A stretch of 64,000 nt of DNA. Origin: Paraspadella gotoi (taxonomy: Eukaryota > Animalia > Chaetognatha). The notes beneath the pieces are model-generated. The model was not told the DNA's origin and did no database searches. It saw nothing but the letters and a program-made list of their open reading frames with translations. Shown piece after piece: positions 1 through 54,829 of this stretch (within the stretch, counting starts at the first letter, position 1; each line of letters starts with the position of its first letter). Made by a program: the position numbers and the translations under genes. The DNA lies in the NCBI GenBank assembly GCA_051294375.1, contig CM119270.1, forward strand, positions 10,560,766 through 10,624,765, given 5' to 3'.

Positions 1-294
1 CTATCTGAATCTAGGTTTAAAATTTAAAAATTCTCCAAAATATTTTGGCCTTTCCTATCTATAAATAAATATTAAAAAAATAATTATTTTGTCCATTGAA
101 AGTATACGTAAAACTATAAATTTTTGTTTTAGCATGTACTCATTCAAAATGTTTGACTCACCCCTACCACAATGCCTTTATTTGTTCGGCGGTTCGTAGT
201 AAAATGAGTATAAAACGAGAAAAAGTAACTAAAACTAAAAATGAGTTATGTGACGATGTATAAGAAATTTCTCCTTTCAAACTTTCTCCTTTTT

Positions 295-815
295 CCCATC
301 CCCATTCCCATCCCCGTCCCCTAATCTCTTCCCCATTCGATCCCCGTCCCCTAATCCCTTTCCCAACTCCATCCCCCTTTCCCCTAATCCCTTCCCCATT
401 CCCCGTTCCCCGCCCCTAATCCCTTCCCACTTCCATCCCGTCCCCTATCCCTTCCCATTCCCATCCCTGTTCCCCTAATCTTTCCCCATTCCCATCCCCA
501 TTCCCCTAATCCCTTACCCATTCCCGATCCCCATCCCGTCCCTAATCCCTTCCCCATTCCCTATCCCCGTCCCCTAATCCCTTACCCATTCCCATCCCCG
601 TCCCCTAATCCCTTCGCCATTCCCATTCCCCCTCGTCCCCTCGAATCCCTTTCCCACATCCCCATCCCATCCCCGTCCCCTATATCCCTCCCCATTCCCC
701 ATCCCCTCCCCTAATCTCCTAATTCCCCTTTTCCCCGTTCTCCCATCCCCGTCCCTTAATCCCTTCCCCATTCCCATCCCCCGTCCCCTAATCCCTTATC
801 CCATCCCCGTCCCCT
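295..815 (+). repeat. ~31-bp C-rich minisatellite (cccattcccatccccgtcccctaatcccttc)
   Basis: Directly visible tandem units, each containing CCCTAA. Confidence 0.95.
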
Positions 816-1636
816 TAATTCCTTCCCCAGTTCCACCGAACCGGAACCGAAAGCCACGCCCCCTCCTCAGTCCAAGTCCCGGGTCCGCCGCTGGACGGAG
901 TGGGTCTCGAAGAAGCTCGAATTTCGCGAGGATTCCGTGGACGAACCTCCGCAGAAGAAGAAGGATCCCGACCCGCCCAAGTTTATTGCTTACGAACAGA
1001 ACGGTTCGATTGAGAAAGGGGGGAAAATAAGGGGGCAGTAACGAGATAGAAGTGTCGTCGGGCATTGCGACAAGTTTTACCTGCCAATAACCTTGAATTT
1101 GTGACCAGTTGGTTCAGGGGTAAAAACAAGTGTCAAAAGTCAAAAGGGAGAACTTGTAGCAATGCCTGCCTACGTACAGAGGCTTCGTGACGAATAGAGA
1201 CGGACGTATTGACGGAGAGCTCTTTCTTTTCTCAAAAAACTAGTTTTAAAATGTTTGACATTAATTTTTAAAAGTATTCCCGTAGGAGATTGAAAAATGT
1301 GATGCTATTTTGATGAATGAACAAAAATTCTAAATTTAACTTTTATTAAATTGTAAAATTGTACTCAAAAAATTATTTTTTAAAAAAATATAAGAAATTT
1401 TGCAATTTACCAGTAGGCTATATTTTAAATAGTTTTAACCTTATAAAGTTAAAATTTTAAAATAGTTTTAAATTTTTAAATTTTTAAATTTTAACCTACT
1501 AATGAAATTATTTTTCAAAATGATTTATATTTTCTTTTATCACTTTTGACAAGTAATTCAATATGCTATCAAAATTAAGAAAGCTTATTTTGAAATTTTA
1601 GGTATTTTATAAGGATTGTGTAAAGGTATATAAATA

Positions 1637-1917
1637 TGTAGTCGGGCATTGCCTAGGTTCACCCCGCCTATAAGCATGACACCTTCAGTCCTGACCCGGT
1701 GGCTCATTGAGTAAGCCATCAGCTCATGACCACTAGGTACCGGGTTCATCCCCAACCTGGTACCTACCCTGGCGAGAAGCGTGAGGACGGCCGTAAGCCG
1801 CCTTGGGGGCGTGGCAACCCCTCAAGCCTGGTCCAAGCCCAGGACCGTTCCTGGCTACTAAAGGGGTTATAGAAGTTACGTATAGTTATCTTCAGCCCAC
1901 TTAGCGCCTTATCCACA
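1637..1917 (+). mobile_element. Family A element copy within the duplicated block
   Basis: Same sequence and same AATA duplication as 7977-8261, with small indels. It is the same insertion event, not an independent one. Confidence 0.8.
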
Positions 1918-2100
1918 AATATAGCCTATTGCATAATTGTTTATAAAATAATTTTTTTTACAAATTAGTATTCACTGGTGGAATGTCATTATAATTGAAT
2001 TTAGAATTTTATACATTATGTATATACTCTCTTTTCGTTCTTTTTGAAGTATTAGGAGAAAACAGTTTTGGTTTGACAACGATTTTTTTTGGACATAATT

Positions 2101-2147
2101 AGCCAGACATGTTTCGGCTTCATTCAGTTAGAGCCTTCATCAGTGCT
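2101..2147 (-). ncRNA. Minimal hammerhead, copy at the palindrome centre
   Basis: Same motif as 8449-8494 with one extra base in stem II. Confidence 0.7.
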
Positions 2148-2363
2148 TTGACATGAGCCGAAACATGTCTGGCTAATTATGTCAAAAAAAATCGTTGTCA
2201 AACCAGAAACTGTTTTTCTCCTAAATACTAAAAAGAACGAAAAGAGAGTAATATCATAATGTATAAAAATTTAAAATGTCAATTATAAATGAGCATTCCA
2301 CCAGTGAATACTAATTTGTAAAAAAAATATTTTATAAACAATTATCGCAATAAAGGCTATATT

Positions 2364-2640
2364 TGTGGAAGGCGCTAGTGGCTGAAGATAACTATACGTA
2401 ACTTCTAATAACCCCTTTAGTAGCCATGGAACGGGTCCTGGGCTTGGATACGCAGGCCTTGAGGGTTGCCATCGCCCCAAGGCGGCTACGGCCGTCCTCA
2501 CGCTTCTCGCAGGGTAGGTACCAGGTTGGGATTGAACCCGGTACCTAGTGGTCATGAGCTGATGGCTTACTCAATGAGCACCGGGTCAGGACTGAAGTGT
2601 CATGCTTATAGGCGGGGTGAACCTAGGCAAGCCCGACACA
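2364..2640 (-). mobile_element. Family A element, inverted copy in the fold-back arm
   Basis: Reverse complement of 1637-1917. Confidence 0.8.
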
Positions 2641-3434
2641 ATTTATATACTCTTTACACATCCTTATAAATACTGAAATTTCAAAATAAGCTTTTTTTAA
2701 TTTTGATAGCATATTTGAAATTACTTCAAAGTTGATAAAAGAATATAAATCTTTTGAAAAATATTTCATTAAGTAGGTTAAAATTTAAAAAATTAAAATT
2801 TTAAAACTATTTTAAAATTTTAACCTTTATAAGGTTAAACCTATTTATAAATATAGCCTACTGCGTAAATTGCAAAATTTCTTAATTTTTTTAAAAAGAT
2901 AATTTTTTTTTGAAGTACAATTTTAAATTTTAATAAAAGTAAATTTAGAATTGTTCATGTTCAAAATAGCATCACATTTTCAATCTCCTAGCGGGAATAC
3001 TGTTTAAAAATTCAATGTCAATTTAACTATTTTTTGAGAAAAGAAAGAGTCTCTCCGTCAATACGTCCGTCTCTATTCGTCACGAGCCTCTTACGTAGGC
3101 AGGACATTGCCTACACAGTTCTCCCTTTGACTTTTGACAACATTGTTTACTCAATGAACCAACTGGTCACAATTTCAAGGTTATTGGCGGTAAAAACTTG
3201 TCGGAATGCCGACGTTCACTTCTTCTCGTTACTGCCCCCTTATTTTCCCCCCTTTCTCAATCGAACCGTTCTGTCGTAAGCAATGAACTTGGGCGGGTCG
3301 GATCCTTCTTCTTCTGCGGAGGTTGTCCCACGAATCCTCGCGAAATTCGAGCTTCTTGAGACCCACTCCGTCGCAGCGGCGGACCCGGGACTTGGACTGA
3401 GGAGGGGGCGGTGGCTTTCGGGTTCCGGTTCGGG

Positions 3435-3935
3435 TGGGAATGGGAAGGAATTAAGGGGACGGGGATGGGAAAGGGATTGGGGAACGGGGATGGGAATGGG
3501 GAAGGGATTTAGGGGACGGGGAATGGGAATGGGGAAGGGAATAGGGGACGGGATGGAATGGGGAAGGGATTAGGGACGGGATGGAATGGGGTAAGGGATT
3601 AGGGGACGGGGTGGGAAATGGGATCTAGGGGACCGGGATGGGAATGGGAAGGGAATTAGGGGACGGGAAGGGAATGGGGAAGGAATTAGGGAACGGGGAT
3701 TGGGATGGGAATGGGGTAAGGGATAGGGAATGGGATGGGAATGGGAGAAATGATTAGGGGACAGGGATGGGAATGGGGAAGGGATTAGGGGACGGGGATG
3801 GGAAATGGGAAGGGATTAGGGGACGGGGATGGGAATGGGGAAGGGATTAGGGGAACGGGGATGGAGTGGGGAAGGGATTAGGGACGGGGTGCGAATGGAA
3901 GAGATTAGGGACGGGGATGGGAATGGGGATGGGAA
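3435..3935 (-). repeat. Inverted copy of the ~31-bp minisatellite
   Basis: gggaagggattaggggacggggatgggaatgg units. Confidence 0.95.
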
Positions 3936-4617
3936 AAAGGAGAAAGTTTGAAAGGAGAAAATTTTTATCATCGCACATAACTCATCTTTTATTTGTAGTT
4001 AACTTTTTTCTCGTTTTATACTCATTTTTTACTACGAAACGCGCCGAACAAATAAAGGCATTGTGGTAGGGGTGAGTCAAACCATTTTGAATGAGTACGA
4101 TGCTAAAACAAAACAATTTATGATTTTTTACGTATACTTTCAATGGACAAATAATTTATTTTTTTTAATATTTATTTATAGATAGGAAAGGCCAAAATAT
4201 TTTTGGAGATTTTTTAAATTTTAAAACGCTAGATTCAGATAGCTAATAAAAAATTGTCTCAACAAAGTATATTTCTTTTTAAATAGTTTTTTTATGTAAA
4301 TCAAAAATAAGAAAAACTACAGTTTTGATGATTTTATCATTTTTTTAATATTTTCACTTAGAAAAGGTAGGAATTAAAAAAGCTGTTATTATATTTTTGG
4401 TTTGACTTTTTAATGCTCTAGTCAGAAACCCATCAAAAAAGATTAAAATAAAATTATAATGCGAAAAAAGATAACTAAACAATTGTGGACGCACAAAGTT
4501 TTTCAGCGTAAGAATGGATTTATTCCACAACGTATAATACAATAACAGTTCAAAATGCTTCAGATGCTAAGTCTATACAAAGTCAAACCGTTTGACCATA
4601 AAGATCAACCGTTTGAC

Positions 4618-5820: not shown

Positions 5821-6204
5821 GTTTTGACCATAAATAAGTTGGGGGAATTGAGCGAGGTAAGGTTGTTAAGGTCATGTGGTTTGACCACCAGGTTGCGTGT
5901 TCTAGATGTTGTCGTCCACAACATTTAATATAATAATCAAGACATATAATGTAATTTTTTTTAGAAAATAAAATAAATATTAAAAAAATAATTATTTTGT
6001 CCATTGAAAGTATACGTAAAAATATAATTTTTTTTTGTTTTAGCATGTACTCATTCAAAATGTTTGACTCACCCCTACCACAATGCCTTTATTTGTTCGG
6101 CGGTTCGTAGTAAAAATGAGTATAAAACGAGAAAAAAGTAACTAAAACTAAAAATGAGTAATGTGACGATGTATAAAAATTTCTCCTTTCAAACTTTCTC
6201 CTTT

Positions 6205-7145
6205 TTCCCATCCCCATTCCCATCCCCGTCCCTAATCCTTCCCCATTCCCATCCTGTCCCCTAATCTCTTCCCCATTCCCATCCCGTCCCCTAATCCCTT
6301 CCCCATTCCCCATCCTCCGTCCCCTAATCCTTTCCCCATTCCCATCCCATCCCTAATCCTTCCCATTCCCATCCCCGTCCCCTAATCCCTTCCCATTCCC
6401 ATCCCCGTCCCCTAATCCCTTCCCCCATTCCACCCCTGTCCCCTAATCCCTTCCCCATTTCCATCCCCGATCCCTAATCCTTTCCCCATTCCCATCCCTG
6501 TCCCCTAATCCTTTCCCCATTCCCATCCCCTAATCCCTTCCCCATTCCCATCCCCGTCCCCTAATCCCTTACCCATTCCATCCCCGTCCCTAATCCCTTA
6601 CCCATTCCCATCCCCGTCCCTAATCCCTTCCCATTCCCATCCCCGTCCCCTAATCCCTTCCCATTCCCATCCCCGTCCCTAATCCCTTCCATTCCATCCC
6701 CGTCCCTAATCCCTTCCCATTCCCATCCCCGTCCCCTAATCCCTTCCCATTCCCATCCCCGTCCCCTAATCCCTTCCCATTCCCATCCCCGTCCCCTAAT
6801 CCCTTCCCCATTCCCATCCCTTCCCCTAATCCTCCCATTCATCCCTCCCTATCCCTATCCCCATTCCCATCCCTATCCCTTCCCATCCTACCCTCCCCTA
6901 ATCCCTTCCCCATTCCATCCGATCCCCTAATCCCTTCCCCATTCCCACCCGTCCCCTAATCCCTTCCCATTCCCATCCCGTCCCCTAATCCCTTCCCATT
7001 TCCCACACCCTGTCCCTAATCCCTTCCCCATTCCCATCCCCGTCCCCTAATCCCTTCCCCATTCCCATCCCCTAATCCTTCCCCATTCCCATCCCCTAAT
7101 CCTTTCATTCATCCCATCCATCCCTTTCCCATCCCCGTCCCCTTA
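6205..7145 (+). repeat. ~31-bp C-rich minisatellite, ~0.94 kb array
   Basis: Directly visible tandem units. The array lies just upstream of the splice acceptor at 7157. Confidence 0.95.
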
Positions 7146-7157
7146 ATTCCTTCCCAG

Positions 7158-7369
7158 TTCCACCCGAACCGGAACCGAAAGCCACGCCCCCTCCGCAGTC
7201 CAAGTCCCGGGTCCGCCGCTGGACGGAGTGGGTCTCGAAGAAGCTCGAATTTCGCGAGGATTCGTGGGACGAACCTCCGCAGAAGAAGAAGGATCCCGAC
7301 CCGCCCAAGTTCATTGCTTACGAACAGAACGGTTCGATTGAGAAAGGGGGGAAAATAAGGGGGCAGTAA
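7158..7369 (+). CDS. Orphan terminal coding exon of an unknown protein (PPEPEPKATPPPQSKSRVRRWTEWVSKKLEFREDSWDEPPQKKKDPDPPKFIAYEQNGSIEKGGKIRGQ*)
   Basis: Preceded by ttaat plus pyrimidine tract plus CAG. Phase-1 open frame with GC-rich codons to TAA at 7367-7369. Frameshifted copies at ~831-1040 (+) and ~3230-3440 (-). Confidence 0.55.
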
Positions 7370-7976
7370 CGAGATAGAAGTGTCGTCGGGCATTGCGACA
7401 AGTTTTACCCGCCAATAACCTTGAAATTTGTGACCAGTTGGTTCATTGAGTAAAACAAGTTGTCAAAAGTCAAAAGGGAGAACTTGTAGCAATGCCTGCC
7501 TACGTACAGAGGCTTCGTGACGAATAGAGACGGACGTATTGACGGAGAGACTCTTTCTTTTCTCAAAAAATAGTTTTAAAATGTTTGACATTAATTTTTA
7601 AAAGTATTCCCGTAGGAGATTGAAAAATGTGATGCTATTTTGAACATGAACAAAAATTCTAAATTTAACTTTTATTAAAATTGTAAAATTGTACTCAAAA
7701 AAATTATTTTTTAAAAAAATATAAGAAATTTTGCAATTTACGCAGTAGGCTATATTTATAAATAGTTTTAACCTTATAAAGGTTAAAATTTTAAAATAGT
7801 TTTAAAATTTTTAAATTTTTAAATTTTTAACCTACTTAATGAAATTATTTTTCAAAATGATTTATATTTTCTTTTATCAACTTTTGACAAGTAATTCAAA
7901 TATGCTATCAAAATTAAGAAAAGCTTATTTTGAAATTTTAGTATTTTATAAGGATTGTGTAAAGAGTATATAAATA

Positions 7977-8261
7977 TGTAGTCGGGCATTGCCTAGGTTC
8001 ACCCCGCCTATAAGCATGACACCTTCAGTCCTGACCCGGTGGCTCATTGAGTAAAGCCATCAGCTCATGACCACTAGGTACCGGGTTCAATCCCAACCTG
8101 GTACCTACCCTGCGGGAAGCGTGAGGACGGCCGTAAGCCGCCTTGGGGGCGTGGCAACCCCTCAAGCCTGGTTCCAAGCCCAGGACCCGTTCCATGGCTA
8201 CTAAAGGGGGTTATAGAAGTTACGTATAGTTATCTTCAGCCCACTTAGCGCCTTATCCACA
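7977..8261 (+). mobile_element. Family A mini-element (solo-LTR-like): tRNA-like Pol III head plus P5 twister ribozyme
   Basis: Ends TGTAGT...TCCACA with AATA duplicated at 7973-7976 and 8262-8265. A box TGGCTCATTGAG at 8040, B box GGTTCAATCCC at 8084. Twister at 8113-8189. Confidence 0.85.
8113..8189 (+). ncRNA. Twister ribozyme, type P5 permutation
   Basis: P5 cggg; P2b gcgt; GAGGA; P1 cggccg; TAA (predicted cleavage 8134/8135); P2a gcc; GC; P3 cttggggg/ccctcaag; P4 cctgg/ccagg around L4 TTCCAAGC; P5 cccg. Pseudoknots TCC:GGA and GC:GC both pair. Confidence 0.85.
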
Positions 8262-8448
8262 AATATAGCCTATTGCGATAATTGTTTATAAAATAATTTT
8301 TTTTACAAATTAGTATTCACTGGTGGAATGTCATTTATAATTGACATTTAGAATTTTTATACATTATGTATATACTCTCTTTTCGTTCTTTTTGAAGTAT
8401 TAGGAGAAAAACAGTTTTGGTTTGACAACGATTTTTTTTGACATAATT

Positions 8449-8494
8449 AGCCAGACATGTTTCGGCTCATTCAGTTAGAGCCTTCATCAGTGCT
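8449..8494 (-). ncRNA. Minimal type I hammerhead ribozyme (Penelope-like element type)
   Basis: Minus strand agca-CTGATGA-a-ggctc(taactgaat)gagcc-GAAA-cat-GTC-tggct. Palindromic ACATGT stem III; weak stem I. Confidence 0.8.
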
Positions 8495-8659
8495 TTGACA
8501 TGAGCCGAAACATGTCTGGCTAATTATGTCAAAAAAAATCGTTGTCAAACCAGAACTGTTTTTCTCCTAATTTTTATACATAACTTTCGCTTCGCTCCAA
8601 CGAACAATTAGTTTAAAAGAACCGAGTAAGCGTTAACTCTCATGTTATTAAAACCCCAG

Positions 8660-17583: not shown

Positions 17584-20500
17584 TCAACAACTTCCCACCT
17601 CATGCCCCAACCACGACCGCTGCCCCACCTGCTCCTGCTCCAGCCGCTCCTCCAGCCGCTGCTTGAAGACCTCTTCCGCTTCCTCCTTCTCTTCGTCCAC
17701 GAATTCGTCTTTGTCGAGGCGCTCGAGATTACGCAGCGACACCAGCACCTCCATGCGGTACTCCTCCATCTCCGATACAGGGTTTTCTAGAAAAATAAGG
17801 TGCAAAATTTGAATAATTTAATTGCAAAAAATTGTATAACTTTTTAATCTGGTTTCCAGATTAAAAAAGAATTGGTGACTTTGAAAAAAAAATTGTTTTT
17901 CCCTTTGAAACAGAAAAAAAATGTGATTAAGATATATTTTCATTTCGTTGAGAAAAGAAAATTATTGTTTCGTTTATAAAAAAAAATCAAATCGTGAGAA
18001 TGAATTGTGAGAAAAAGTAAATATTTTTTTTTAATTTAAATTCCATTTTTTGATGTATCTTTAATTATTCCCATCGGTTTTTTGTGTGTTTTGACATCAA
18101 CAACGCTTAAAAATATAGAGAATCAAAGTGCAATAATTTAAAATTTTAATAATATTTACCAAAGAGTATCAAAGTCCGAAGAGCTGGAAGCGTAACCAGT
18201 TCTGCAACAAAAAGAGGACAAACAAATTGAAGAGTCTTTATTTTGGTAAAAATTTGACTTTCTCTTTCAAGTTACAATTATAACCGATTCAAAAAAATAA
18301 ATACTACTATATTTATAAAATTTAATCTAAATAACAATTAAAAAAATCACTCAATAAAGAATGAATAAATGAATCAATGAACCGACTTTCAATCTCGCGG
18401 AAATCGTCGACTTTGTTGCCTCTGAGGCTGAGGTACTGGAGGGAAGAGAGCGTCGGGGGAAATCCGTCCAGAGTGTGGAAGTTGTTCTCTCGGAGGTGAA
18501 GCACCTGGCGGGGATGAGGGAGAGGAAAGTTAGTCGGGTAATTATGTATTATGTATTATGTATTAATGTGAGGTAAGTTACTATCGAAATTACTTATATT
18601 TATTTGTAAAACTTCTTATTTTTTAGTGGAGGAGCAGAGATAGCATTGGGGATGAATTAAAGAACAAGTTTGAGCAAACAATGCCGGATCTGCCCACGAT
18701 CATTAGCGGTAAGCAGCGAAACTTGATTTCCAATTCAATCACACACACACACCCACAGACAACATTTCATTCCAATCCATCAATCAAATCACGAGTAATT
18801 GGTGTTTTTTGCTAAGGTGGGACGGACGGACGGACGGACGGACGGACAGACAGACAGACGGACAGTCAAACGGACAGACAGACGGACGGACAGACGGACC
18901 TCATTTTTTTGCATAATTTATCGTAATTCGATGTTCTAACATGATATAAGTGAATGCCCGACAAGATATGGGGGGAGAACCGACGGACCGACAAGTTGAA
19001 TTATAGAGCCGGGTTCTGAAATGATTGATTTTTTTCAACTGCGAAAAACAACAACAACAACAGCAACAAGAACAACAACAATAACCTAGCCACTGAACCG
19101 CCCCCTCCTTTCCAACCTCCAATTTGACAAGGCTCTCCAACTCCTCCACTTTGTCCAGATTGTTCCCCGCCAGATAGAGGCGCTGGAGTTGGACCAAGGC
19201 GCCCAGACCGGAAGTGGAGGTGAGTTTGTTTCCGCGAAGCTCAAGGGTGTGGAGGCGGCGGAGGATGGTAGGCTCGAGGTGGGTCACTCTGGTTACGCGG
19301 TTGTCTGAAGTGAGTCGGCGGGTTGGGGGAGGGTGTTGGGAAAATTAGGAAAGTAACAGAGTTAGGTTTTATGAAAGAATGTTTATTATGGTCAATAGGC
19401 TTAATTTCAGAATAATATTTACAAAATTGTTACTCACCCCGTGTCCGTTCGCGAGTGACACCAAAAAATATTTAATATACTTTAAATATTAAATAAATAT
19501 AATTCATAAGTATATCATTAGTTGGAGAACTACTTGACGTTTTTTATGTATAAGTTTCATTTTGTGTTTAATTCATTTACTATACTATGCTTAATCAAAC
19601 ACTTCCCTACCCACATGCAAAATTTCAAGTCAATTGCCCCATCCACTCATGAGTAATTAGCGTTCAAATAGTGAAATATATTTTTTGTTTTTTCCATTTA
19701 AACTCATTTCCACTCGCAAAGTGAATTATAGTGTCGGGATCTGCTGATAAGCAGATCCGACAAAAAATACGACTAAAAATGAGTCAAACTCTAAGAGAAA
19801 AAGTTCTCGTCAAAGAAAACTTAAAAAAAAAACTGAAATAGATTTATTTTTATCACAGAAACTTTTGCACAAAAAAAAAAAAAAAAAACTGCATCCTCGG
19901 TCTCTTTTTTTGTCTTTGATTAAAATTTCGCGTGAAAACAGATTTTTTTTTTCTTTTCGTTCACTCGCTCTGCTCTGCCTCGTTTACCCTAAAAAAGATA
20001 GAAAAAAAAATCCATAAAGATTAAAAGGGGAAAGAATATTTATTTTCTTTTTTTTCCTCAAATTTTTTTAATCTCGGTTCTTCGGTCGTCATAACGACGA
20101 ACGTGGGGCGATTTAGATGAAAGAGACGAAGCTGACGATCATGATGACGATGACGTCGACGACGACGACGACTATGGTGATGATCATGACAAACTCGATG
20201 TTTCCAACGATGACAAATAGGACAACGACATCGAAGATAATGATAATTCATGTGACAGTGTTACAGTTTTATGCTGGTCACAACCGACCATAACTTCGCT
20301 GATGTGAATAAAAAAACGAGGGACCGACCGACAGACCGACGGACCGACAGACCGACGGACCGACAGACCGACGGACCGACAGCCGGATCCCGGATATGAT
20401 GTCTTTAATCGCCTCTTTATTGCGAGAAATCTCTCGTAAAAGGAACATTTCTCATTAAATTGACACTTTCTTCATTACGGGCGGCGGAGCTTAATGAAGG

Positions 20501-23500
20501 AACCGGAGCCTCGACGCGTTTAGGGATGACATCGACGTTATTTTTTGAAAAACTAAAATTAATTTAGGGATGAAATGAATGAGAATATTATTAATCATAT
20601 AAAAATGGAAAAATATCTTTATCTATAAAAAACATTTTTGTTCAAAAAACGTATAAAATAAGGGTCAAACAGTAAATAGTTTAACATAAATTAATCATAA
20701 TTTTCATAAGGTCCTTAAAAATTTGTTTGTCGTAGAAGTGCATTTAGAAAAATAAAAATTGAAAACATAATCATCGCATTTTACAAAACCTAAAACTGTA
20801 AAAAATGAAAAAAATATAAAATCCCAAAAATAAAAAAATAAAAATTTCCTTCCCTGAAAATGGATGAAAAACTAAAAGTCACCAATGACCTCAGGCTTCT
20901 CTTTTTTCGGCGAATTCGTCTGAATCTGTTTTATTCTTTTGAAATAAAAAATAAAAAGAAATAAAAAAAAAATTTCGTTTTCTCGTTTATTCTTCGTTTG
21001 ACTTCGTCTCTAATTGCGAGGTTACGGGTTTATATGGGAAATGAAAATGCCCCATTGAGGTTCCCATTGACGGCCGTAAAAGCGGATCGCGGGTTGAAAC
21101 TAAAGATTTAGCCGAGGTTTTCGCCCCCACCCCCCTCTTTGCCCGCCTCCACCCCGACTCGGTCTGCCTTTCCCCTCCTTTTCCCTTCCTCATCCCATCA
21201 TCTTTCCGTCTTCATTTTTTCGCCTAGATTCTAGCTCCCCTTATTTCTTTCTCTAACCTCCTACCTATCGTAACAACTATCTATAATTCCGCCAAATTTA
21301 ATCACGCCCATGTTACAGATCTGCTCAAAAAAAAGTTTAATAGTTATGATAAAAGCATTTTATTTCGTTATTTGAAGGAAAATAATGCTTTTTAGGACTC
21401 AGTTAGTTATTAGGTTGTCAGACTACCATTTTTTTACATCATCACCTCCCTGCAACAAGGGAGAGAGTTGTAGAGGCTGCACAAATATGAAGGGTTCAGC
21501 TCCCCAAATACATTTTGAAATTTTCTTGATTGTATTGACTGTCATGGCGTTATATTGCAAAATATCCCTTTTCATCCTTGACCAAACATTTTCGATGATG
21601 TTGCACCTCAATCCCATTTTCCTCATGACATTTTTGGATGGCTTTAACTTTGTATCCAGGAGCTGTATCCTCCATGAAAAGCCAACCATTCACTGTTGAA
21701 CAACTTCTTCTTCTCTCCATTTTTTTCTTAACTGGCTTGCAGAAGCCTTACGGTCTTGAATTGCGAGACTTTCCACGTCATCGTTCTCACTCTCCGTGGA
21801 CATGCAGGGCCGCCTGCATGTCAGCTGGTCCAAGGTGTCCATTTGCTTCAAATTTGTTAACAACCTTGCAGATGGCTGTAGAAGAGAAATGAAACTGTTT
21901 GGCGATCCTATATCTTGACAAACCTGCCTTCCAAAGCTTAACAATTGCAGTGTAGCAGCTCAAGTGACGATGACAACAACAACAACAAACGACCACAACA
22001 ACGACGATCAAGTTCACTGCCCATTATTCGACCACCTGACCTTGGGTCAGGTTTCACCTCACTCACTTGAACATTGACCATTGAATTGTTATTGTTTTTT
22101 CTCTTTTTGGTTTTTACTATTGTTATTGACTTTTCGTTATGGTTTACTTTTATTTTTTGGATTATAACCTTTTTTGTTTCCTTAAAGAAAAATTGCCTCA
22201 ATATTTTTTTGCTCAAAAATATTCGTCACTTGAGTCAACTACAGCAGCTTTCTTTTGGGGGATCAGCTGTTTTGAAGTTTCCATGGTAAAAAAAATACAA
22301 AAAAAAATAAAAACAAAGATTGTGGAAGACGATGCCGCGAGCAGTTTTACCGTCTGTTGCACACAAGGTCCCGAACTTCGGATCGGGCTGTAGTCCGACA
22401 CTACAGGTGGGTTAGACGCCCCGTCCCGCTTTTACTTGTGTGAATCAGCAGGGCGCGAACCCGAGTCCTTTGGGTTGGGAGGAGCTCGTGCTACCTCCGG
22501 CGCCATAGGTGCTGCTGATTCTCGGACGAGTAGTGGGGTATGAAATACTACCACTACAAGATGAATAAAAAGTTTTTTCACAAAAAAAAAAAAGAAATTG
22601 TAAGACAAAATATTTATCCTTTTTTTTATTTTAGCACTGTTTCTATAATATCTAGCCTAAAAACCTTGTAATGGGCTCGAATGAAAGATATTTGTCTTGG
22701 CTTTCAAATGAACCCAAATTTCAATTAATAGGATGACAGACAAGCGAGATAGTAGGGGGTTCAAAGTTTAAACTTTTTTTTGAGCAGATCTGTATATTTG
22801 GATACCGATATTGCGTATCACCATTATAATTGTTGCTTGACATAGTGTTCAGATTTGTGGAATCACCCGATGTTGAGATGAGAAAAGATCATTATTATTT
22901 AACAGTATTTAATTAAGAGTTCATAGCTTTATCTTTGCAGAAATATCTGCTATGTCTATTGCCAGGTCAAAGAGACAACAGTAAACAACATCTAAAGATT
23001 TAAAGACGATAAAAATTTAAAAATAACCATTTTTAAGAAAAAAAAGTTTTTTTGGTTCAGATTTTTAACGCGCACAATTCGGTGAAAAACAGAATGGAAA
23101 GAAATCAGTGGAAAAATACAAATAAGACGCTTTCACGAGAGGGAGGAATAAAGGAAAGTGTGGGGGAGAAGGGGGAGAAGGATGGAGAGAGGAAAGAGAA
23201 GGAGAGAAGGGAGGAATAGGGGAAAGTGTGGGGGAGAAGAGGAAGAAGGATGGAGAGAGGGAGAGAGGGAGGAATAGGGGAAAATGTGGGGGAGAAGGGG
23301 GAGAAGGATGGAGAGAGGGAGAGAAGGAGAGTGGAGGAAATAGGAAGAAGTGTGGGGAGAAAAGGGGGAGAAGGATGGAGAGAGGGAGAGAAGGAGAAGA
23401 GGGAAGAATAGGGGAAAATGTGGGGGAGAAGGGGGAGAAGGATGGAGAGAGGGAAGAGAAGGAGAGAGGGAGGAATAGGGGAAAGTGTGGGGGAGAAGAG

Positions 23501-25495
23501 GAAGAAGGTTGGAGAGAGGGAGAGAAGGAGAGAGGGAGGAATAGGGGACAATGTGGGGGAGAAGAGGAAGAAGGATGGAGAGAGGGAGAGGAGAAGAGGG
23601 AGGAATAGGGGAAAATGTGGGGAGAAGGGGGAGAAGGATGGAGAGAGGAGAGAGAAGGAGAGAGGGAGGAATAGGGGAAAATGTGGGGGAAAAGGGGGAG
23701 AAGGATGGAGAAAGGGACAGAGGGAGGAAGAGATGATGCGAGCGAGGGAAAGGAGTATAACGTTGAGAAAAGCGAGAGAAGAGTTTCAGAAAGAAAATGA
23801 AAGAAGGGAGGAGTGAAAAGGGGGACAGAGGGATAAAAGATAGAGAGAGAAAGAAAGACAGAAAATGGGAGCGACGGGGTAAGGGACGGAGACCAGAGGG
23901 TAAGTCTATGCGGAGGCGTTGAAAAAAAGAAAAAAAAGATGATTACCACATTTTCGCAGTTTATGTACAATCGCGTGAAAGGCTTAATGGTCGACGATGG
24001 AGGAAAGAAACTTGGGTTCAAATAATAATTGGGCAAAAGAGATTCATAATTCATTTGCCACAAACGACGACGACTACGACGACGACGACGACGACGACGA
24101 CCAAGACGCCGGAGGCCATCCATGGAATGAATGGCGGTTTTCTTTTTTTCAATATTTTTGAAAGAATTTTTCCCAGTAAATGTTGCAGAGGACGAATTTA
24201 GCTTTTGCCTAAATTACAGAAAAAGCAAGTTTGAGCGAACAATATCGTATCTGCCCACGATCATTAGCGGCTTTTAATTAAATAATTAATTAATTCAAGT
24301 TAATTGATTAATTAGGCAATTAAATAATTAATTAATTTGATCCGATATGTTTGTTTTTAGGTCTTTTCGTCACTGACCACGACGATGTTGGCGACGACGA
24401 CACTAATGCCGATAACGATTGACTTAATTGATTGATTGATTGATTGAATGAATAATTAATTAATTGATAGATAAATTGATTGATTGAAAAATTAATTAAT
24501 AGTTAAACAAATTGATTGATTGAATAATTAATTGACTAATTATTGACTTATTAATTAATTATTAATTAATTTTATTAATTATTAATTAATAATATTAATT
24601 AATTAATTAATAATATTAATTAATTAATTAACTAATTGATTAACTGATTAATTACCTGATTAATTAATAAATCTTGCATTTACATTTAATAAAAAAAGAA
24701 AAAGAATCTTAATCAATCGCCCCATCCACTCATGAGTAATTGGTGTTCAAATAGTGAAATTTATTTTTTGTTTTTTCCATTTAAACTCATTTTCACTCGG
24801 ACGATTCCATCGAAAGTTCATATACAGCTCAATCACACACTTCCCTACCCACATACACACACACACGGACAGACAAACGGACGGACGGATGGACGCATGA
24901 CGGACGGACGGACGGACGGACATACAGACAGACAGACGGACGGACATAGTTTTTTTTTTTTTTTGCATAATTTATCATAATTCGAGGTTCTGACATGATA
25001 TAAGTGAGTTCCCGACAATATTGAGTTGGCGGACCGACGGACCGACAAAGTGAATTATAGAGTCGGGTTCTGCTAAAAATAAAACTAAAAAATGAAAAAA
25101 GATTTTATTAAAGAGAAAATTGTTTGTTCTAAAAAATATCTTACTAGTATTTTTCTAAAAAGTATTAACATACTTGAAAGTATATATGTTTCTCGAGATT
25201 TTCTTTGTTTTCAATGTTTATATCCTTTATCATGCTTTCGATTCGCCCAACCAACCCCAACCCATGTTTAAAACCCGTGTTGCCTCTTCGATTTTCCCCA
25301 TAAGCTCAACGTCCACCCACCCACCTCGCCTTCCCACACTCGACCCTCTCCTCCCCCATCTTAAACTCCCTCTCCATTTTCTCTCCGTTTGTCGACAAAA
25401 AAATTTAAACAAATTCAGGATTTTCGTCATAAACTTGTTTTCGCCGAATCAGAAATTCGTCGCCGACGAGAAAGAGACGCGAAAGAGAAGAAAAA

Positions 25496-27510: not shown

Positions 27511-28562
27511 GGGCCCCCCGAAAACGGAGTCGCCCAAAAAGAGTTTTTTTGCCGAAGCAAAGAATCATTTAGTAAAAATTCTTTTGATGGGGAATGACTT
27601 TTCAACTTTAATGATGCTTTGGTGGTGAATGGGAAATCTCGAAGCCTGCCGGTGCGGGAGGCATTGTGCTTTTGTCGGCGGGCGAGGTTGCCGCCGCCGC
27701 CGCCGCCGCCCCCGCCGACGCCGCTGACGCCGACGCCGCCGCCGACACCGAAAAAAATGAAAGCCGGTTGTCGAAAAAAACGCCGGCGGTATTCCTTTTC
27801 CTTAATTCCGAAATTCGCTATACTGTGTAATGGAATATGCTAATAAGTTTTTAATAATTTATTCTGAGCGGTTCTACGGCCGTAAACGATTCGAATTTCT
27901 TTTACCCGGTGTTCTTGGATATGTTTCACGATTTCCAAAGAGACTAAAGAATAAAGATGTAATAATAAGTAAGAAACTTGGATGAATTGGACAACGGCGG
28001 CGACAACTACGTCGCCGTGAACATTGAACAATCCTTTCTTTAGTTTTACTATTAATTTTAACCTCAACTCTCTCACATAGCGACTCAAAAAAAAGATAAA
28101 CAAAATTCAGTGATAGTCACAATTGACAAGATCCAATCGAATGTGAAATAGAATCGAAACGAGGAATGAATTCACTACAACTGACGAAGAGAAATAAAAA
28201 AAAAAAAAAAAACCAACGCCATTCCTAAGCAGCGTCACTTTTTCCGCCGCCACTTACTTCCGGACGCCATTTTGAGACGCGTCCCGCGACCACTAGCGGC
28301 AACTTAAATATAATTTACAACAAAAAAACATTAACGGATGTAAATTGAGAGACGCGTGTGTGGAGATGTGAGTAAGTAGAGAGAGAAAAAGAGAAGAGAG
28401 AGAGAGAAGGAGAGAGAGAGAGAGAGAGAGAGAGAGACGAGAGAGAGAGAGAGAGAGAGAAGAGAGTCTTTTGTGAGAGCGAGCACTGCCGAAATCATCA
28501 TCTTTTAACGAAGTTTCTCAAATCTTCCTGAGAGAGAGAGAGAGAGAGAGAAGAGAGAGAGA

Positions 28563-30207: not shown

Positions 30208-32954
30208 GCTCCCCTCTTGCTCTCCCTCCCTCTTTTCTTTTATGATTCTGCGCCTCTTTTTTTTTCGTTATCGGTAAACACAGATTTCTAATGATGTTCC
30301 CGCGGATTCGATGTCGTCGTTGTTGTCATCGTCGTTGTCGTCGTCGTCGTCGTCGAGAGGGGATGCCGTTGAGATTTCCTCGTCCGGGTTGGGTGAGGAA
30401 GAGAGTTGGGTGAGAATGATGAGGGAGGTGAGATATCAAGAGTGACGAGGGAACATTTACGAAAAAAAAGTTAAAGAATAAAAAATTATTAAAATATAAG
30501 AACACAAAAACATTAAAATTAGGCATTAGAATCTATACTTGGAGAAAAATCTCTTTCTCGTTCCCCCCGTCACTCCCCAAAACCATTGTGGGTCCCACGG
30601 TGTGGCCCACAGTGTCATTTTCATTTTCTTCGTCCCGTGAGTCGTCACGCTACATTAGTTTGGAGACACGCCCGCCGTCGCCCGCGGCATAACTCGTTCA
30701 CGCATTCGCGCTGCATCTCCGGTGAAAGGAGCTTCATTTCACAAACATAAAACACCAAAATGCGCCTGACGAGAAAATTACAAATCAAACCCAGTTAGAT
30801 ATCGAAACGACGTTAAAAATACCAACAACAACGACAACAATGAAGGATTCGAGGAAAAAGGAAATTCCAGAATCTTTGAAATGCGTGTTTTGGAATTGTC
30901 ATTCAGACGAGTCGTCGAAGAAAAAACGAAGGAGCGCCGGTTTATAAAAAAAGCGCCGCGATTTTAAATCCGGCAGAAATCTACAATGAACATTTTCAAA
31001 ATAGTGTACGACAAAATAATTACAATTCCAAGCCTATTTTTATTACATTGGGTAAAATGTACTTCAAGTTGCCTAATCAAACTAAAATAAACTAATAAGC
31101 ACTTTATTAGCAAGCAGAAATTTACTGATATATATTTATATATATATATATTTACTGAAATCCACAAACGGCACCAAAATCCAAAAACCACTCCGCCAAT
31201 CCAAAACGGGCGCTTAAATCCTATCCCGTCTCCCAAATCCCAAACTGGCGCTCATCCTTTCAACCGGATTCAATTTCAAATTCTCTTCCCCCCCCCCCAC
31301 CGCTTTTCTCAGGCGGTGGGGCCGGCGACGGGTGCGGCTCCGCATCGGCGGCGCCGGCGGCGGTGCCAGCCTCTAATGGGGCGGCGGTGAATTGACCCAT
31401 GCATTTTCCCATTTCCCGCGTTTTTCACAGACGACGCGAAATTTTATTATCATTTTTCTTTTTTCTTTTTTTTTTCTTTTTTTCTCTTTTTTATTTTTAT
31501 TTTCGCTGAGGTTGCAGCGTCTGAGGCGTTTGGTTCCTTGGATGGTTTTTTGGGAGGAAAGAAGAGACGGCGACGAGGAAGTCCATTCAGTTGGACGACA
31601 AGTTTGTTTTTTGTGTGTGCACCTTGTTTGGGTGTGATCACGTCACATCAGTGAATCGTTTTCTTTTTCAGGTTTGCACGATTTATGAATACAAATTGTA
31701 TTTATGTATTTTTAATAAATTAGCAGACTACGAGCTAAAGACGGTTTTCTACGTATTGGATCGCCAATACCATATAAACAATTATGTTCAATCGGCTTAA
31801 AATGAGGTTTGAATTTTTTGATTCTCCTCTTACTTACAATTTAGGTTAAGGGTTTCCAACATCGGATGATTGAGGCCTTCAGTTGTCTCGATGCGATTGT
31901 TTGCAAAATTGGCTTCCTAAAATATATACATATATGTATTTATAAAAAAAATGTACGCATTTCATAACAATACTCTTTTTAGTGATATCTTATTTCCTTT
32001 GTCAATGACACATTCCTTTTTTCTCTCGCCCACCTGCAAGTAGGGCCTCTCCGTGAGAGCGGCGCTTTTTAACTTGTTGTACTCGCACTTCACTGAGAGA
32101 AGATGATCCAAAGCGTTGAGAGAATCCAGGGATCTCAGGTTGTTCTTTGACAACTCCAAATATCTCAAGTGTTTGTACTGTTGCAGGACGGAAATGTCCG
32201 TAATGTCCCTTGGGAAAAGTTAAATATGAATGTATTGCAAATTCCCCCAAAATAGTATGGTGTAAAATTTAGGTACATGTCTGTCTTATAACTATTTATA
32301 AAAAGTTATTTTAAACTAACTTCGTTGATTTTGACAAATATGTCCCTCACTTCAAATATTGAAGAATATTGAGAAACATTCTAAATACAATGTACCAATC
32401 GGCCTTCTATGTATTAGCTCACCTTTCAGAAATGTCCAGTCTGACGTAGGCGTGGCTCAAACCTTCTCCAGTCTTGCAAAGAAGAGAGAGACACTCGACC
32501 ATGTGATCCATCGACAACGAGACGTTCTCTTCTTCGTCGTCCTCTTCGTCGTCCTCATCGTCGTCGTAGGCGTCGTCGTCGTCTTCACGAAGTTAAATGA
32601 ATAAGAAACGATTGAATCACTGGCAAGAAAATCTGATTGTGACAGATTTCAAAAGGAGCTGCTAATTTTTTTTTAAATATGTCGATTTTCAATTATTTTA
32701 ATCAACATGAATAATAAAATAATTAAAAATAATTCTTAACGAACGCCTTTTTGTTAAAAATTGTCATTAGTTTTTTTTTTTTTTAATTAAGGCAAGCAAA
32801 CCAGAAATTGAATCAAGCAGTAGGTTGTAAAAAGAAAATGGACGTCTTTAAAAAGCTTACCCTTTTCATCGGATGCGTGGCTTCTTTCCATTTCGTCGTC
32901 GTCGTCCACTTCGACTTTGTTATCGTTTTCGTCAACATTCGTCCAGGTTTTCAT
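17584..32954 (-). CDS. LRRC23: Leucine-rich repeat-containing protein 23 (motile cilia radial spoke associated), 8 exons, 352 aa
   Basis: Exons 32954-32861, 32582-32423, 32208-32034, 31916-31838, 19304-19117, 18504-18387, 18201-18160 and 17786-17584. All GT-AG with matching phases, 1059 nt in total. Acidic N-terminus, LSLLCKTGEGLSHAYVRLD, LHTLELRGNKL, LHLRENN and NPVSEMEEYRMEVLVSLRNLERLDKDEF match LRRC23 as I recall it. The last exon could instead splice at ~17629. Confidence 0.93.
18662..19020 (+). mobile_element. DINE-1/HINE-like (Helentron-associated) non-autonomous element
   Basis: Head aacaagtttgagcaaacaatgccggatctgcccacgatcattagcgg, (GACG/GACA)n core, tail ttatagagccgggttctg. The same modules recur elsewhere in the window. 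Confidence 0.65.
21951..22243. mobile_element. 293-bp TIR element with TGT...ACA ends (Ginger-like MITE) inserted in the Tc1 transposase
   Basis: ~21-bp TIR tgtagcagctcaagtgacga / tcgtcacttgagtcaactaca. GCAG is duplicated. The empty site acaattgcagctttctt is present in the sister Tc1 copy at ~54200 (reverse complement). Confidence 0.8.
22321..22558 (-). mobile_element. Family B mini-element (solo-LTR-like): tRNA-like Pol III head plus P5 twister ribozyme
   Basis: Minus-strand ends TGTAGT...TCCACA. AGAT duplicated at 22317-22320 and 22559-22562. Absent from the sister Tc1 copy. A box TGGCGCCGGAGG and B box GGTTCGCGCCC lie inside the stem gaatcagcag/ctgctgattc. Confidence 0.88.
22361..22441 (-). 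ncRNA. Twister ribozyme, type P5 permutation
   Basis: P5 acacaag; P2b gcgg; GACGG; P1 ggcgtc; TAA (predicted cleavage 22414/22413); P2a ccc; AC; P3 ctgtagt/actacag; P4 cccga/tcggg around L4 TCCGAAGT; P5 cttgtgt. Pseudoknots CCG:CGG and AC:GT both pair. Confidence 0.9.
23140..23712. repeat. Purine-rich ~60-bp minisatellite
   Basis: Tandem gggaggaataggggaaaatgtgggggagaagggggagaaggatggagaga... units. Confidence 0.9.
24225..25075 (+). mobile_element. DINE-1/HINE-like element
   Basis: Same head (caagtttgagcgaacaatatcgtatctgcccacgatcattagcgg), (ATTA/ATTG)n and (GACG)n arrays, tail gaattatagagtcgggttctgct. Confidence 0.65.
26442..27053 (+). mobile_element. DINE-1/HINE-like element containing an 18-bp tandem array
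   Basis: Head caatgtcggagctgcctacgattattaagcgg. Array aactggcataatttggtc at ~26655-26900. 3' hairpin atctgctgataagcagat followed by an A-run. Confidence 0.65.
28816..28854 (-). ncRNA. Degenerate minimal hammerhead
   Basis: gcg-CTGAAAA-ag-gctt(gtgtca)aagc-GAAA-cat-GTC. Core G8 is lost. The flank resembles those at 5570-5610 and 8420-8455. Confidence 0.5.
29483..29697. repeat. GC-rich 9-bp tandem repeat (gcggaggca/gcggaagcg)
   Basis: Directly visible; intronic. Confidence 0.9.
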
Positions 32955-52670: not shown

Positions 52671-53931
52671 TTATTTTTATATCAGATAACTGTACAATCA
52701 GCATTCAAAATTAACTGTTTAAATGTGGAGGTTCAGCTCTAATGGGGCTAACTTCAAGTGCTTACAGCATAAAAACGGATTAAGATAAAGAGGAAAAGGG
52801 ACTATATTTAGAAACTAGGCTAAATTTTCTTTTAATCGATATCCAAAACGTCTGAAAAATTCAACAGCAAATACTGTAATTAAAGCTTTTTATATTAATG
52901 TCCAAATTCTTTGCGCCGCTTCCTTACAAAATTTGGGGAAATTTTGCTAAAAATTAAGATAAAGGATAACAACTATTGACTTTTGGCCGCGCAGTTTTTC
53001 TGACTCTCATCCCCCTAATTTATTAAAATGTAGGATTGAGATTAAAAATGTCTCCCAGTGACAGAAATGACAGCATTCCCAATGGGCGTGGTCAGAAAAG
53101 CATATGCCGCCTTCTCTAAACCTTTGAAGAAGGACATGGTTGCCGATGGTAAATCTTTTTAATTAATTATATTTTTATTACAATTTTTTACAATTTTACT
53201 AATTTTTATTCATTTATTTTTTTATTTACACGTCCAAACAATTTTTTAAAGCTAGTCCCAAAAGAGCTGGACCTCCCTCTATACTGTTTTTAGGTCAAAA
53301 TAAACATCAAATAGTTTTCTAACTAATAAATGTTTTAAAAATAATATATACTGACGAGTTTAATCAAGTCTTTTCATATCACTTTAGTTGAAGTCATTGT
53401 ATTCTAAGCATATTGAAAAACTCGATTTTATTTATTCTTGAGAATTTTTTTTTTCGGTATATTGATATTAAATGAGCAACGTAAAACTTCTTTAAAGGTT
53501 AACACCAAAAATATTAAGAGAATAAAAACAATAAAATTATCTTCTTTTCTTTTGTCTCAGTCATCACTGTAGGCTTCGTCTGGTTTCCTTCACTTCGTTT
53601 ACATTCTTTAATTTCGCATTTGCGGTGGATTTGAATCGATAATCCCCTTAACCTCGATTCGTCTCCCATCGTCGAATTAATCCGAGTAAAACATTTTCTT
53701 TCTCTCGATTAAATAGCAAAAAACTTTTTCCTTTTTGCTGCAATTTTCTTTATAATCAAGTTTCCTTTAGTTTGTCCTAACTATTTTCTCTCTTGGTTAG
53801 CGTCTTACTTTTATAATCTTTATGGAAAATGAAACAGTTTGATCAAAAGTATGAGTCTTATTCTTTTTGCACGTATTATTTCTTTTTTCTGTTAATGTAA
53901 CAGAAATTGTTGTTACAAAATTTGGCGACTA

Positions 53932-54829
53932 CAAATCTGGTAAAAAAAGTTTAAACTTTAAACCCCCTACTTGCCTGATGTCCTATTATTTATTCAAAAG
54001 CCAAGAAAAATATCTTTCATACGAACCCTTGACCAGGTTTTTAGGCTAAATATTATAAAAGCTGTAATAAAATAAAAAAAAGGATTAAAATTATGTCTTA
54101 CAATTTCCTTTTTTTTCTAAAAAGAATTTGTATCCATATTTTTTGTGTGTTTTTTTGTGTTTTTTTACCATTGAAACTTCAAAACAGCTGAACACCAAAA
54201 AGAAAGCTGCAATTGTTGAGCTTTGGAAGGCGGGTTTATCAAGATATAAGATCGCCAAACAGTTTCATTTCTCTCCTACAGAGTTGTCAACAAATTTGAA
54301 GCAACTGGAGACCTTGAACGAGCTGTTGGAAGCAGGTGGCCTTGCATGTCCAAGGAGAGCAAGGACGATGACGTGGAAAGTCTTGCAATTTAAGACCGTA
54401 AGGCTTCTGCAAGCCAGTTGAGAAAAAAAAGGAGAGATGAGAAAGTGTTGCCAGTCGTTCAACAGTGAATGGGCGGCTTTTCCTTCCTGGATACAATGCC
54501 AAAAGGCCACCAAAAAAGTTATGAGGAAAATGGGATCCAGGCTGACTTGAAGGTGGCCCGGAAACTCCCCTGACTGCAACATCATCGAAAATGTCTAGTC
54601 AAGGATAAAAAGGGATATACGTAACAGTCCACAAAATCAAGAAAATTTTAAAATGCATTTATGCATTCATATATGCGCAGCCTCTACAACTCTTTCCCTA
54701 ATTGCAGAGAGGTGGTGCTGAAGCATATTAACGTATTAATTAACTGAGTCCTTAAAAGTATTATTTTCCTTCAAATAACGAAATAAAATGCTTTTATCAT
54801 AACTATTCCACTTTTTTTGACCATATCCC
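53932..54829 (+). mobile_element. Second, more degenerate deleted Tc1-family copy
   Basis: Homologous to 21316-22792 without the inserts. Contains KKKAAIVELWKAGLSRYKIAKQFHFS and WPGNSPDCNIIENV*SRIKRDI. Decayed TIRs with TA flanks. Confidence 0.85.

Follow-up and report, generated by a model that had tools for sequence, protein, structure and literature searches.

What kind of element is the 238-bp unit that interrupts a decayed Tc1/mariner-like transposon in the chaetognath Paraspadella gotoi, and does it encode an RNA that cuts itself? The unit lies within 64,000 nucleotides of contig CM119270.1 (the whole stretch that was analysed, hereafter the window), and an earlier note made from the letters alone, here termed the original prediction, had described it as a twister ribozyme element with a transfer RNA (tRNA)-like body. 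With modest confidence, and on the strength of its sequence features, we read this element, called family B, as a candidate solo long terminal repeat (LTR) of a Helenus-like non-autonomous terminal-repeat retrotransposon in miniature (TRIM) that carries a predicted RNA polymerase III (Pol III) promoter and a putative RNA-cutting twister fold. Taken by itself, the LTR assignment is very probable, and catalytic activity in some form is predicted as likely. Moreover, the central proposal of a twister-fold element with a tRNA-like body inside a Tc1-like transposon finds support in the covariation with a second, divergent family (family A) and in the pile-up of read contigs.

Ends of the element and its dispersal

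Family B reads along the minus strand, where it starts TGTAGTGG and finishes TTCCACA. The boundaries of the original prediction, 22321 to 22558, proved exact, as they fill precisely the gap between two copies of ATCT, and the TG...CA ends together with this 4-bp duplication point to a solo LTR, an assignment that the original prediction did not make. The insertion had been argued from a sister copy of the host transposon, and in our alignment of the two Tc1 copies the sister indeed does not carry the 238-bp unit, but this comparison alone does not fix the exact ends. Since the sister junction falls in T-rich low-complexity DNA, the exact ends were taken from the duplication and the read data. 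From its start, the element runs through a 5' hairpin, the tRNA-like body, a type-P5 twister layout, and a 39-base tail (Table 1). Here, we noticed that two common family variants in the read contigs (22533 and 22534) convert pairs of the 5' hairpin to G-U wobbles. The sense strand contains no run of four T, the nearest one being 8 bases into the flank. Searching with blastn revealed no other family B copy within the 64-kb window, so that the label "best-preserved" in the original prediction has no family member there to be measured against.

Beyond the window, nine sequencing runs from three studies contain the element, none of them on record as RNA, though X9 may be. Contigs from four of the nine (X1, X2, X6, and X9) aligned on 22200-22700, and family B is a dispersed, multi-copy family. 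Among the 24 of 507 loose contig ends listed, ends of mixed sequence cluster at 22558/22559 in three of the four runs (15 + 16, 20 + 18, and 4 + 4 contigs, with an agreement of 0.47-0.55) and occur at 22321 in two of them (14 contigs with an agreement of 0.42 in one, a single contig in the other). Across 22556/22557, the summed contig depth, which is no measure of copy number, drops from 158,800 to 12,784 in X1, from 87,559 to 6,400 in X2, and from 648 to 46 in X9, and at the left edge an A-rich flank makes the depth profile indistinct in all four runs. Within the twister core, the window copy has the majority base at every variant place among those listed (40 of 43, at a 3% threshold); the commonest core variant is located in the P3 loop at 22398, and the catalytic G is altered in about 0.2% of the X1 depth. 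Moreover, two loose-end strings, compared by eye and unphased, display a subfamily that differs in both P5 strands, each replaced in register, with three pairs changed on both sides.

The tRNA-like body

The original prediction had this body closed by a 10-bp stem that abuts twister P5. In fact, all ten pairs form, and the stem meets P5 so closely that its last base, 22442, is common to the first P5 pair. The body begins 37 bases inside the element and contains A-box-like and B-box-like motifs, which constitute a predicted internal Pol III promoter. Its T arm has four of five pairs and its anticodon arm none of five, and ARAGORN called no tRNA gene on the element; on these two grounds, a functional tRNA was rejected. 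Separately, we observed in the contigs of X6 and X9 a high-depth sequence over 22448-22502 that matches only the tRNA-like core, departs from the element at both ends, and enters a T tract past the B box. This is possibly a source small-RNA gene, the head of a short interspersed element (SINE), or a ribozyme-less relative.

The twister fold

Downstream of the tRNA-like body, the segments follow the order of a type-P5 twister. Both of the non-consensus pseudoknots that had been proposed do pair, with AC:GT formed by 22408-07 and 22376-75 and CCG:CGG by 22381-79 and 22423-21. Likewise, the suggested cut between 22414 and 22413 and the G chosen as the negative control (22425) correspond by alignment to the U/A cleavage site and the catalytic G of twisters. 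The statement that all twister helices pair was borne out for P3 (7/7), P4 (5/5), and P5 (8/8), but P2 is short, and P1 amounts to a single pair closing four bases. As to the latter, a twister without P1 retains near wild-type activity, and P1 is reported to be dispensable (PMC5408937). A hairpin of GACG with CGTC over 22425-22415, in which four of four pairs form, was also considered as P1 and rejected, because it would bury the catalytic G.

To what extent such a fold might arise by chance was judged with a descriptor based on the twister consensus and composed after the element had been seen. It found no match in 3000 dinucleotide shuffles of the element, and its scan returned the element site and one T/A-rich artefact at 32781. 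Among the chance matches to the 5' half-motif that were listed (14 viral and at least 120 prokaryotic contig loci), 0 of 134 had both pseudoknots, and a metagenome scan with a 16-base core motif gave 117 loci, none of which aligned to the element over at least 30 bases. Thermodynamic folding, carried out without pseudoknots, favours P3-P5 in the isolated core and only P4 in the whole element.

Family A and covariation

Family A came from a scan that looked for TG...CA units bounded by 4-bp duplications and used no ribozyme feature; two of its eight candidates, 1637-1917 and 7977-8261, are copies of family A. Its alignment with family B scores 117.5, against a mean of 79.8 and a maximum of 100 in 300 shuffles. 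The two families represent two independent insertions, and both have TGTAG...CCACA ends with a duplication of exactly 4 bp. They also have in common the short P2, the self-complementary 6-nucleotide linker, the UAA, the catalytic GA, and a sequence free of four-T runs.

The comparison of P4 and both pseudoknots between the families revealed that 5 of 10 pairs are changed on both sides, another five are the same, and none is broken. Here, the P4 strands were placed by requiring pairing, and the pseudoknot strands without that condition; all five pseudoknot pairs form in both families, with three of the five changed on both sides. P3 and a 5-bp P5 also form in family A, with sequence unlike that of family B. 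Rfam matches family A to Twister-P5 in the same register, though weakly (16.8 bits, E 0.46). Moreover, the middle bases of the linker are swapped between the families, and the linker is still self-complementary; the swap is unpairable inside the hairpin. Among the listed chance half-motif matches, a self-complementary linker is found in 8 of 134 (2/14 viral and 6/120 prokaryotic). Because the short P2 and the linker are kept in both families, we regard them as traits of a subtype and not as decay.

There are three family A copies in the window, though these were rejected as independent insertions, since their flanks are the same and the arms differ mostly by indels. The duplicates that hold them (1-4242 and 5971-8570) are inverted and direct, with 85-91% identity and counts of 6 mismatches against 31 gap columns and 11 against 92, a pattern that suggests errors in long reads or a chimera formed by fold-back and not true divergence. 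Nearby, at 7381-7453 (with duplicates near 1053 and 3217), there is a decayed 5' fragment that is 71% like the family A start and has an A-box-like motif, possibly from a third, older family.

Table 1. Coordinates of the elements, their parts, and the host transposon in the window.
Feature	Position	Strand	Remark
Whole element, family B	22321..22558	-	238 bp, TG...CA ends, likely solo LTR
Target-site duplication, upstream copy	22559..22562	-	ATCT on minus
Target-site duplication, downstream copy	22317..22320	-	ATCT on minus
5' hairpin	22530..22557	-	7-bp outer stem
tRNA-like body	22442..22521	-	Closed by 10-bp stem, 22521-22512 with 22451-22442
A-box-like motif	22494..22505	-	Predicted internal Pol III promoter
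B-box-like motif	22451..22461	-	GGTTC core, predicted promoter
Type-P5 twister fold	22360..22442	-	P5 is 22442-22435 with 22367-22360
P2 3' strand (22429-26), predicted catalytic G (22425), A (22424), 3-bp pseudoknot 3' side (22423-21)	22421..22429	-	Register matches Rfam Twister-P5 alignment of family A
Linker of 6 nucleotides in the place of P1	22415..22420	-	One pair closing four bases; self-complementary, including two G-U pairs
UAA	22412..22414	-	Cleavage predicted between 22414 and 22413 from the twister consensus
Short P2 5' strand (22411-09), 2-bp pseudoknot 5' side (22408-07), P3 hairpin (22406-22388)	22388..22411	-	
P4 and loop L4	22370..22387	-	P4 of 5 bp; loop bears both pseudoknot partners
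3' tail	22321..22359	-	Predicted 7-bp hairpin (22355-22349 with 22333-22327), ends CCACA, no run of four T
Family A, divergent element	7977..8261	+	Same layout: TGTAG...CCACA, duplication AATA, A and B boxes, twister core 8119-8184
Family A, same insertion in duplicated arm	1637..1917	+	One L4 base lost
Family A, same insertion in inverted arm	2364..2641	-	Many indels
Host, decayed Tc1/mariner-like DNA transposon	21314..22794	-	Terminal inverted repeats of 27 bp, perfect, beginning TA
Sister copy of the host	53930..54827	+	Without both inserts; blastn pieces 74-84% identical

Contrary evidence and alternative explanations

A number of observations weigh against reading family B as an LTR with a working twister. 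With regard to the fold, the P2 5' strand is 3 nucleotides long and makes two contiguous pairs, with a third only across a bulge, whereas twister P2 consists of four pairs and an altered P2 length may disturb the active site (PMC5408937). The top P4 pair in family B is A-U (G-C in family A), and a G-C at this position is essentially invariant in twisters (PMC5408937). At the gathering score, Rfam had no match in the whole window, and near the family B element, with E up to 10, it gave five unrelated weak matches and neither a twister nor a hammerhead; the match of family A is far below the cut-off of 37.6 bits. In the whole-element ensemble, the probabilities are about 0.37 for P5, about 0.43 for P3, and 0.01 for P2, and a competing hairpin, one that hides the catalytic G, has a probability of 0.12-0.15 when the core is folded in isolation. 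The covariation is based on two independent insertions and unphased contig ends, and the scan by ends and duplication, not significant when taken alone, gave eight candidates where shuffles averaged 3.3 and 2 of 60 yielded at least eight. As for the read contigs, X6 has no drop in depth at 22557 (91 to 2,017, with the A-rich flank adjoining), and the compensatory P4 changes predicted for the P5-replaced subfamily (22385 and 22387) are absent from the 40 of 43 variants listed. Among the 15 of 37 joints listed, there is none that connects the two ends of the element, and on the side of the polypurine tract (PPT) the loose ends have no purine-tract consensus. The sole hint pointing to a primer-binding site (PBS) comes from an X2 string past the 3' end (14 contigs, agreement 0.42) with the sense sequence TTGGTG, which resembles the start of many Helenus internal regions (PMC10886601); a single X6 contig past the 3' end does not read TTGGTG.

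Foremost among the alternatives is one that retains the solo LTR of a Helenus-like TRIM and takes the twister for a dead or very slow relic, left by a SINE or another ribozyme-bearing element that inserted into an ancestral LTR. The short P2, the one-pair P1, the A-U atop P4, the lack of an Rfam match, and the competing folds in the ensemble would all suit such a relic, as would the proposal by Kojima that TRIMs of this type originate via SINE insertion into an LTR (PMC10886601). Nevertheless, the UAA and the catalytic GA are preserved in two divergent families, as is each pair that was tested, by way of two-sided changes, the short P2 is common to both and thus not the decay of one copy, and variants of the core, the catalytic G included, are rare in the family contigs. 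Taken together, we consider a relic unlikely.

Alternatively, the LTR might have an active twister with its RNA remaining linear, the cut setting the ends or terminating the transcript, or it might be part of a Gypsy element, longer or autonomous, that is transcribed by RNA polymerase II. We give this little credence. The contigs, which are unable to reveal circular RNA, an internal region, or a transcript start, gave none of these, and another TG...CA insert with a 4-bp duplication is found nearby (21951-22243), both of which would agree with it. However, once both LTRs are cut, no terminal repeat is left for strand transfer of the usual kind, the reason for modelling retrozymes as circles (PMC4918200), and the A and B boxes are preserved in both families.

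In a further reading, quite unlikely in our view, the element would be a SINE derived from a tRNA and holding a twister internally, which a long interspersed element copies through target-primed reverse transcription, with TG...CA ends that are coincidental. It would account for the tRNA-like part and for no PBS or PPT having been seen, and twisters are known at the non-LTR elements Perere-3 (PMC8501958) and RTE (PMC7761336). Moreover, three X9 contigs part from the 3' tail at 22346 and continue into a short run of tandem repeats without reaching the CCACA end, possibly a SINE-like form. Against this stand the TGTAG...CCACA ends with exact 4-bp duplications in both families, a tRNA-like part that starts well inside the element, the absence of an A-rich or tandem tail from either copy, and a 5' end that is sharp in three of the four runs. 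Lastly, a miniature inverted-repeat transposable element (MITE) or a chance GC-rich insertion with an accidental ribozyme likeness would fit a short, non-coding, multi-copy unit whose two strands fold near-equally (z -2.81 and -2.88), but it is highly improbable and already largely refuted, the MITE being rejected for having no terminal inverted repeat of at least 10 bases, and the chance insertion opposed by the empty shuffles, the listed half-motifs that never complete the fold, and the family A covariation.

Proposed mechanism

With family B as the LTR of a Helenus-like TRIM, transcription by Pol III would begin in the 5' LTR, at its tRNA-like body, and, with no terminator in the way, would run through the internal part and the 3' LTR. 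The twister would likely trim this transcript at both LTRs, comparable to the hammerheads of plant retrozymes. Following the retrozyme example, in which processing and circularisation by RtcB are described (PMC4918200, PMC7229834), a host RtcB-type ligase may circularise the RNA, and a Gypsy-type helper may supply the reverse transcriptase and integrase that copy and insert it, giving the 4-bp duplications. Solo LTRs could come from LTR-LTR recombination or from short complementary DNAs. The ends, the duplication, the promoter motifs, the pairing, and the covariation are those parts of this scheme that we observed.

A more specific proposal, possible if somewhat unlikely, is that these elements are Pol III retrozymes in which the short-P2 twister subtype would circularise the RNA, the linkers of the two LTR ribozymes pairing as P1, with two-LTR transcripts cleaving well and solo LTRs remaining quiet. 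In this regard, amphibian hammerheads with a one-pair stem and a palindromic tetraloop cut better as dimers (PMC7229834, PMC6765202). Since P1 is dispensable, the monomer may cleave regardless.

Comparison with known elements

Among described elements, family B shares with Helenus TRIMs and TRIMp3 a short TG...CA LTR, A and B boxes without a working tRNA, a 4-bp duplication, and solo LTRs; in animals, the Helenus LTR has tRNA-like A and B boxes, 4-bp duplications, and solo copies (Kojima 2024, PMC10886601). Unlike Helenus, family B has a twister fold past the B box and no run of four T in its LTR, whereas many Helenus LTRs have, by eye, a T run shortly past the B box (PMC10886601, Data S1). 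The main text of Kojima 2024 contains no twister and brings up ribozymes only in connection with retrozymes (PMC10886601). By eye, no twister was seen in the non-fungal Helenus consensus sequences that were read (PMC10886601). The LTRs of two wasp elements, Helenus-2_SyJa-LTR and Helenus-2_SyUm-LTR (PMC10886601, Data S1), have by eye an apparent layout of a type III hammerhead on the 3' side of the B box, with a GUC triplet, a 7-bp stem I, CTGATGA, a 4-bp stem II, GAAAC, and a 12-base loop complementarity, which goes unremarked in that main text.

With the plant LTR retrozymes, family B has in common a (here predicted) self-cleaving ribozyme in the LTR of a non-coding element, a 4-bp duplication, solo LTRs, and a presumed Gypsy helper (Cervera 2016, PMC4918200). 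It differs in having a twister and not a type III hammerhead, a tRNA-type promoter, and a shorter LTR, 238-285 bp across families B and A as opposed to 300-400 bp (PMC4918200). The non-LTR retrozymes of metazoans occur as tandem repeats that contain type I hammerheads, and they have no LTRs, PBS, or PPT (Cervera and de la Pena 2020, PMC7229834), whereas family B is dispersed and has LTR-type ends. By analogy, then, family B would work like a plant LTR retrozyme and be built like an animal Helenus TRIM; we assign it to neither, because no internal region was seen in the contigs and the fold is twister-like and no hammerhead.

As a ribozyme, family B resembles type-P5 twisters (RF02684) in the segment order, the UAA site, the catalytic GA, both pseudoknots, and the P4 loop. 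It deviates from them in a P2 one pair short, a 6-nucleotide linker for P1, the presence of P3, non-consensus pseudoknot pairs, and a score below the Rfam cut-off. The Perere-3 twisters of Schistosoma are likewise linked to a retroelement and have a weak P1 (Liu 2021, PMC8501958), though they are type-P1 and occupy the 5' end of a non-LTR element that is autonomous (PMC8501958), whereas the twister of family B is internal to an LTR-like unit and behind a tRNA-type promoter.

In the literature searched, the component kinds are already known, and the combination of a tRNA-promoter LTR with a twister was not found. A full-text search, judged from titles and abstract openings and covering few subscription papers, gave no twister in an LTR and no ribozyme in Helenus, and a 2026 paper that has both words deals with them separately (PMC13570524). 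The original twister survey, known to us via reviews, may list such sequences in its supplement without context.

Most eukaryotic genomic twisters have no assigned role, and the LTR retrozymes in the literature we found are from plants and have hammerheads. An LTR with both a tRNA-type promoter and a twister would unite Helenus TRIMs and retrozymes, so far described separately, and would suggest how defined ends arise on a Pol III transcript that has to read through one LTR. It would also represent a natural twister variant missed by Rfam, in which P2 is shortened and a dimer switch is possible. If true, and together with the apparent wasp hammerheads, this would mean that tRNA-promoter LTRs recruited self-cleaving ribozymes more than once, and the two-LTR pairing would be the twister counterpart of the double hammerhead.

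Host transposon and other features of the window

The terminal inverted repeats of the host are 27 nucleotides long, 100% identical, and flanked by TA. Two of its six stop-free pieces gave HTH_23 matches under the Pfam cut-off (E 7e-05 and 0.0045), and no DDE domain was matched by Pfam in the six. The family B copy landed in this dead Tc1-like element and is unconnected to Tc1 transposition. A second insert in the same host (21951-22243) is 293 bp long and AT-rich, has TG...CA ends and a 4-bp duplication, and is lacking in the sister copy; with an imperfect terminal inverted repeat of about 22 bases and no B box, it is likely a solo LTR of a different family.

Elsewhere, a 354-bp TG...CA unit within a 4-bp duplication, ACTG, is found at 27826-28179, a possible solo LTR that could also be chance. 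The window repeats comprise microsatellites and DNA transposon remnants, and a GA-rich minisatellite (23162-23729, about eight copies of a 67-bp unit) adjoins the host transposon on the right. On the minus strand at 19099-19344, there is a leucine-rich-repeat exon, SDS22/LRRC23-like according to matches in the PDB and Pfam.

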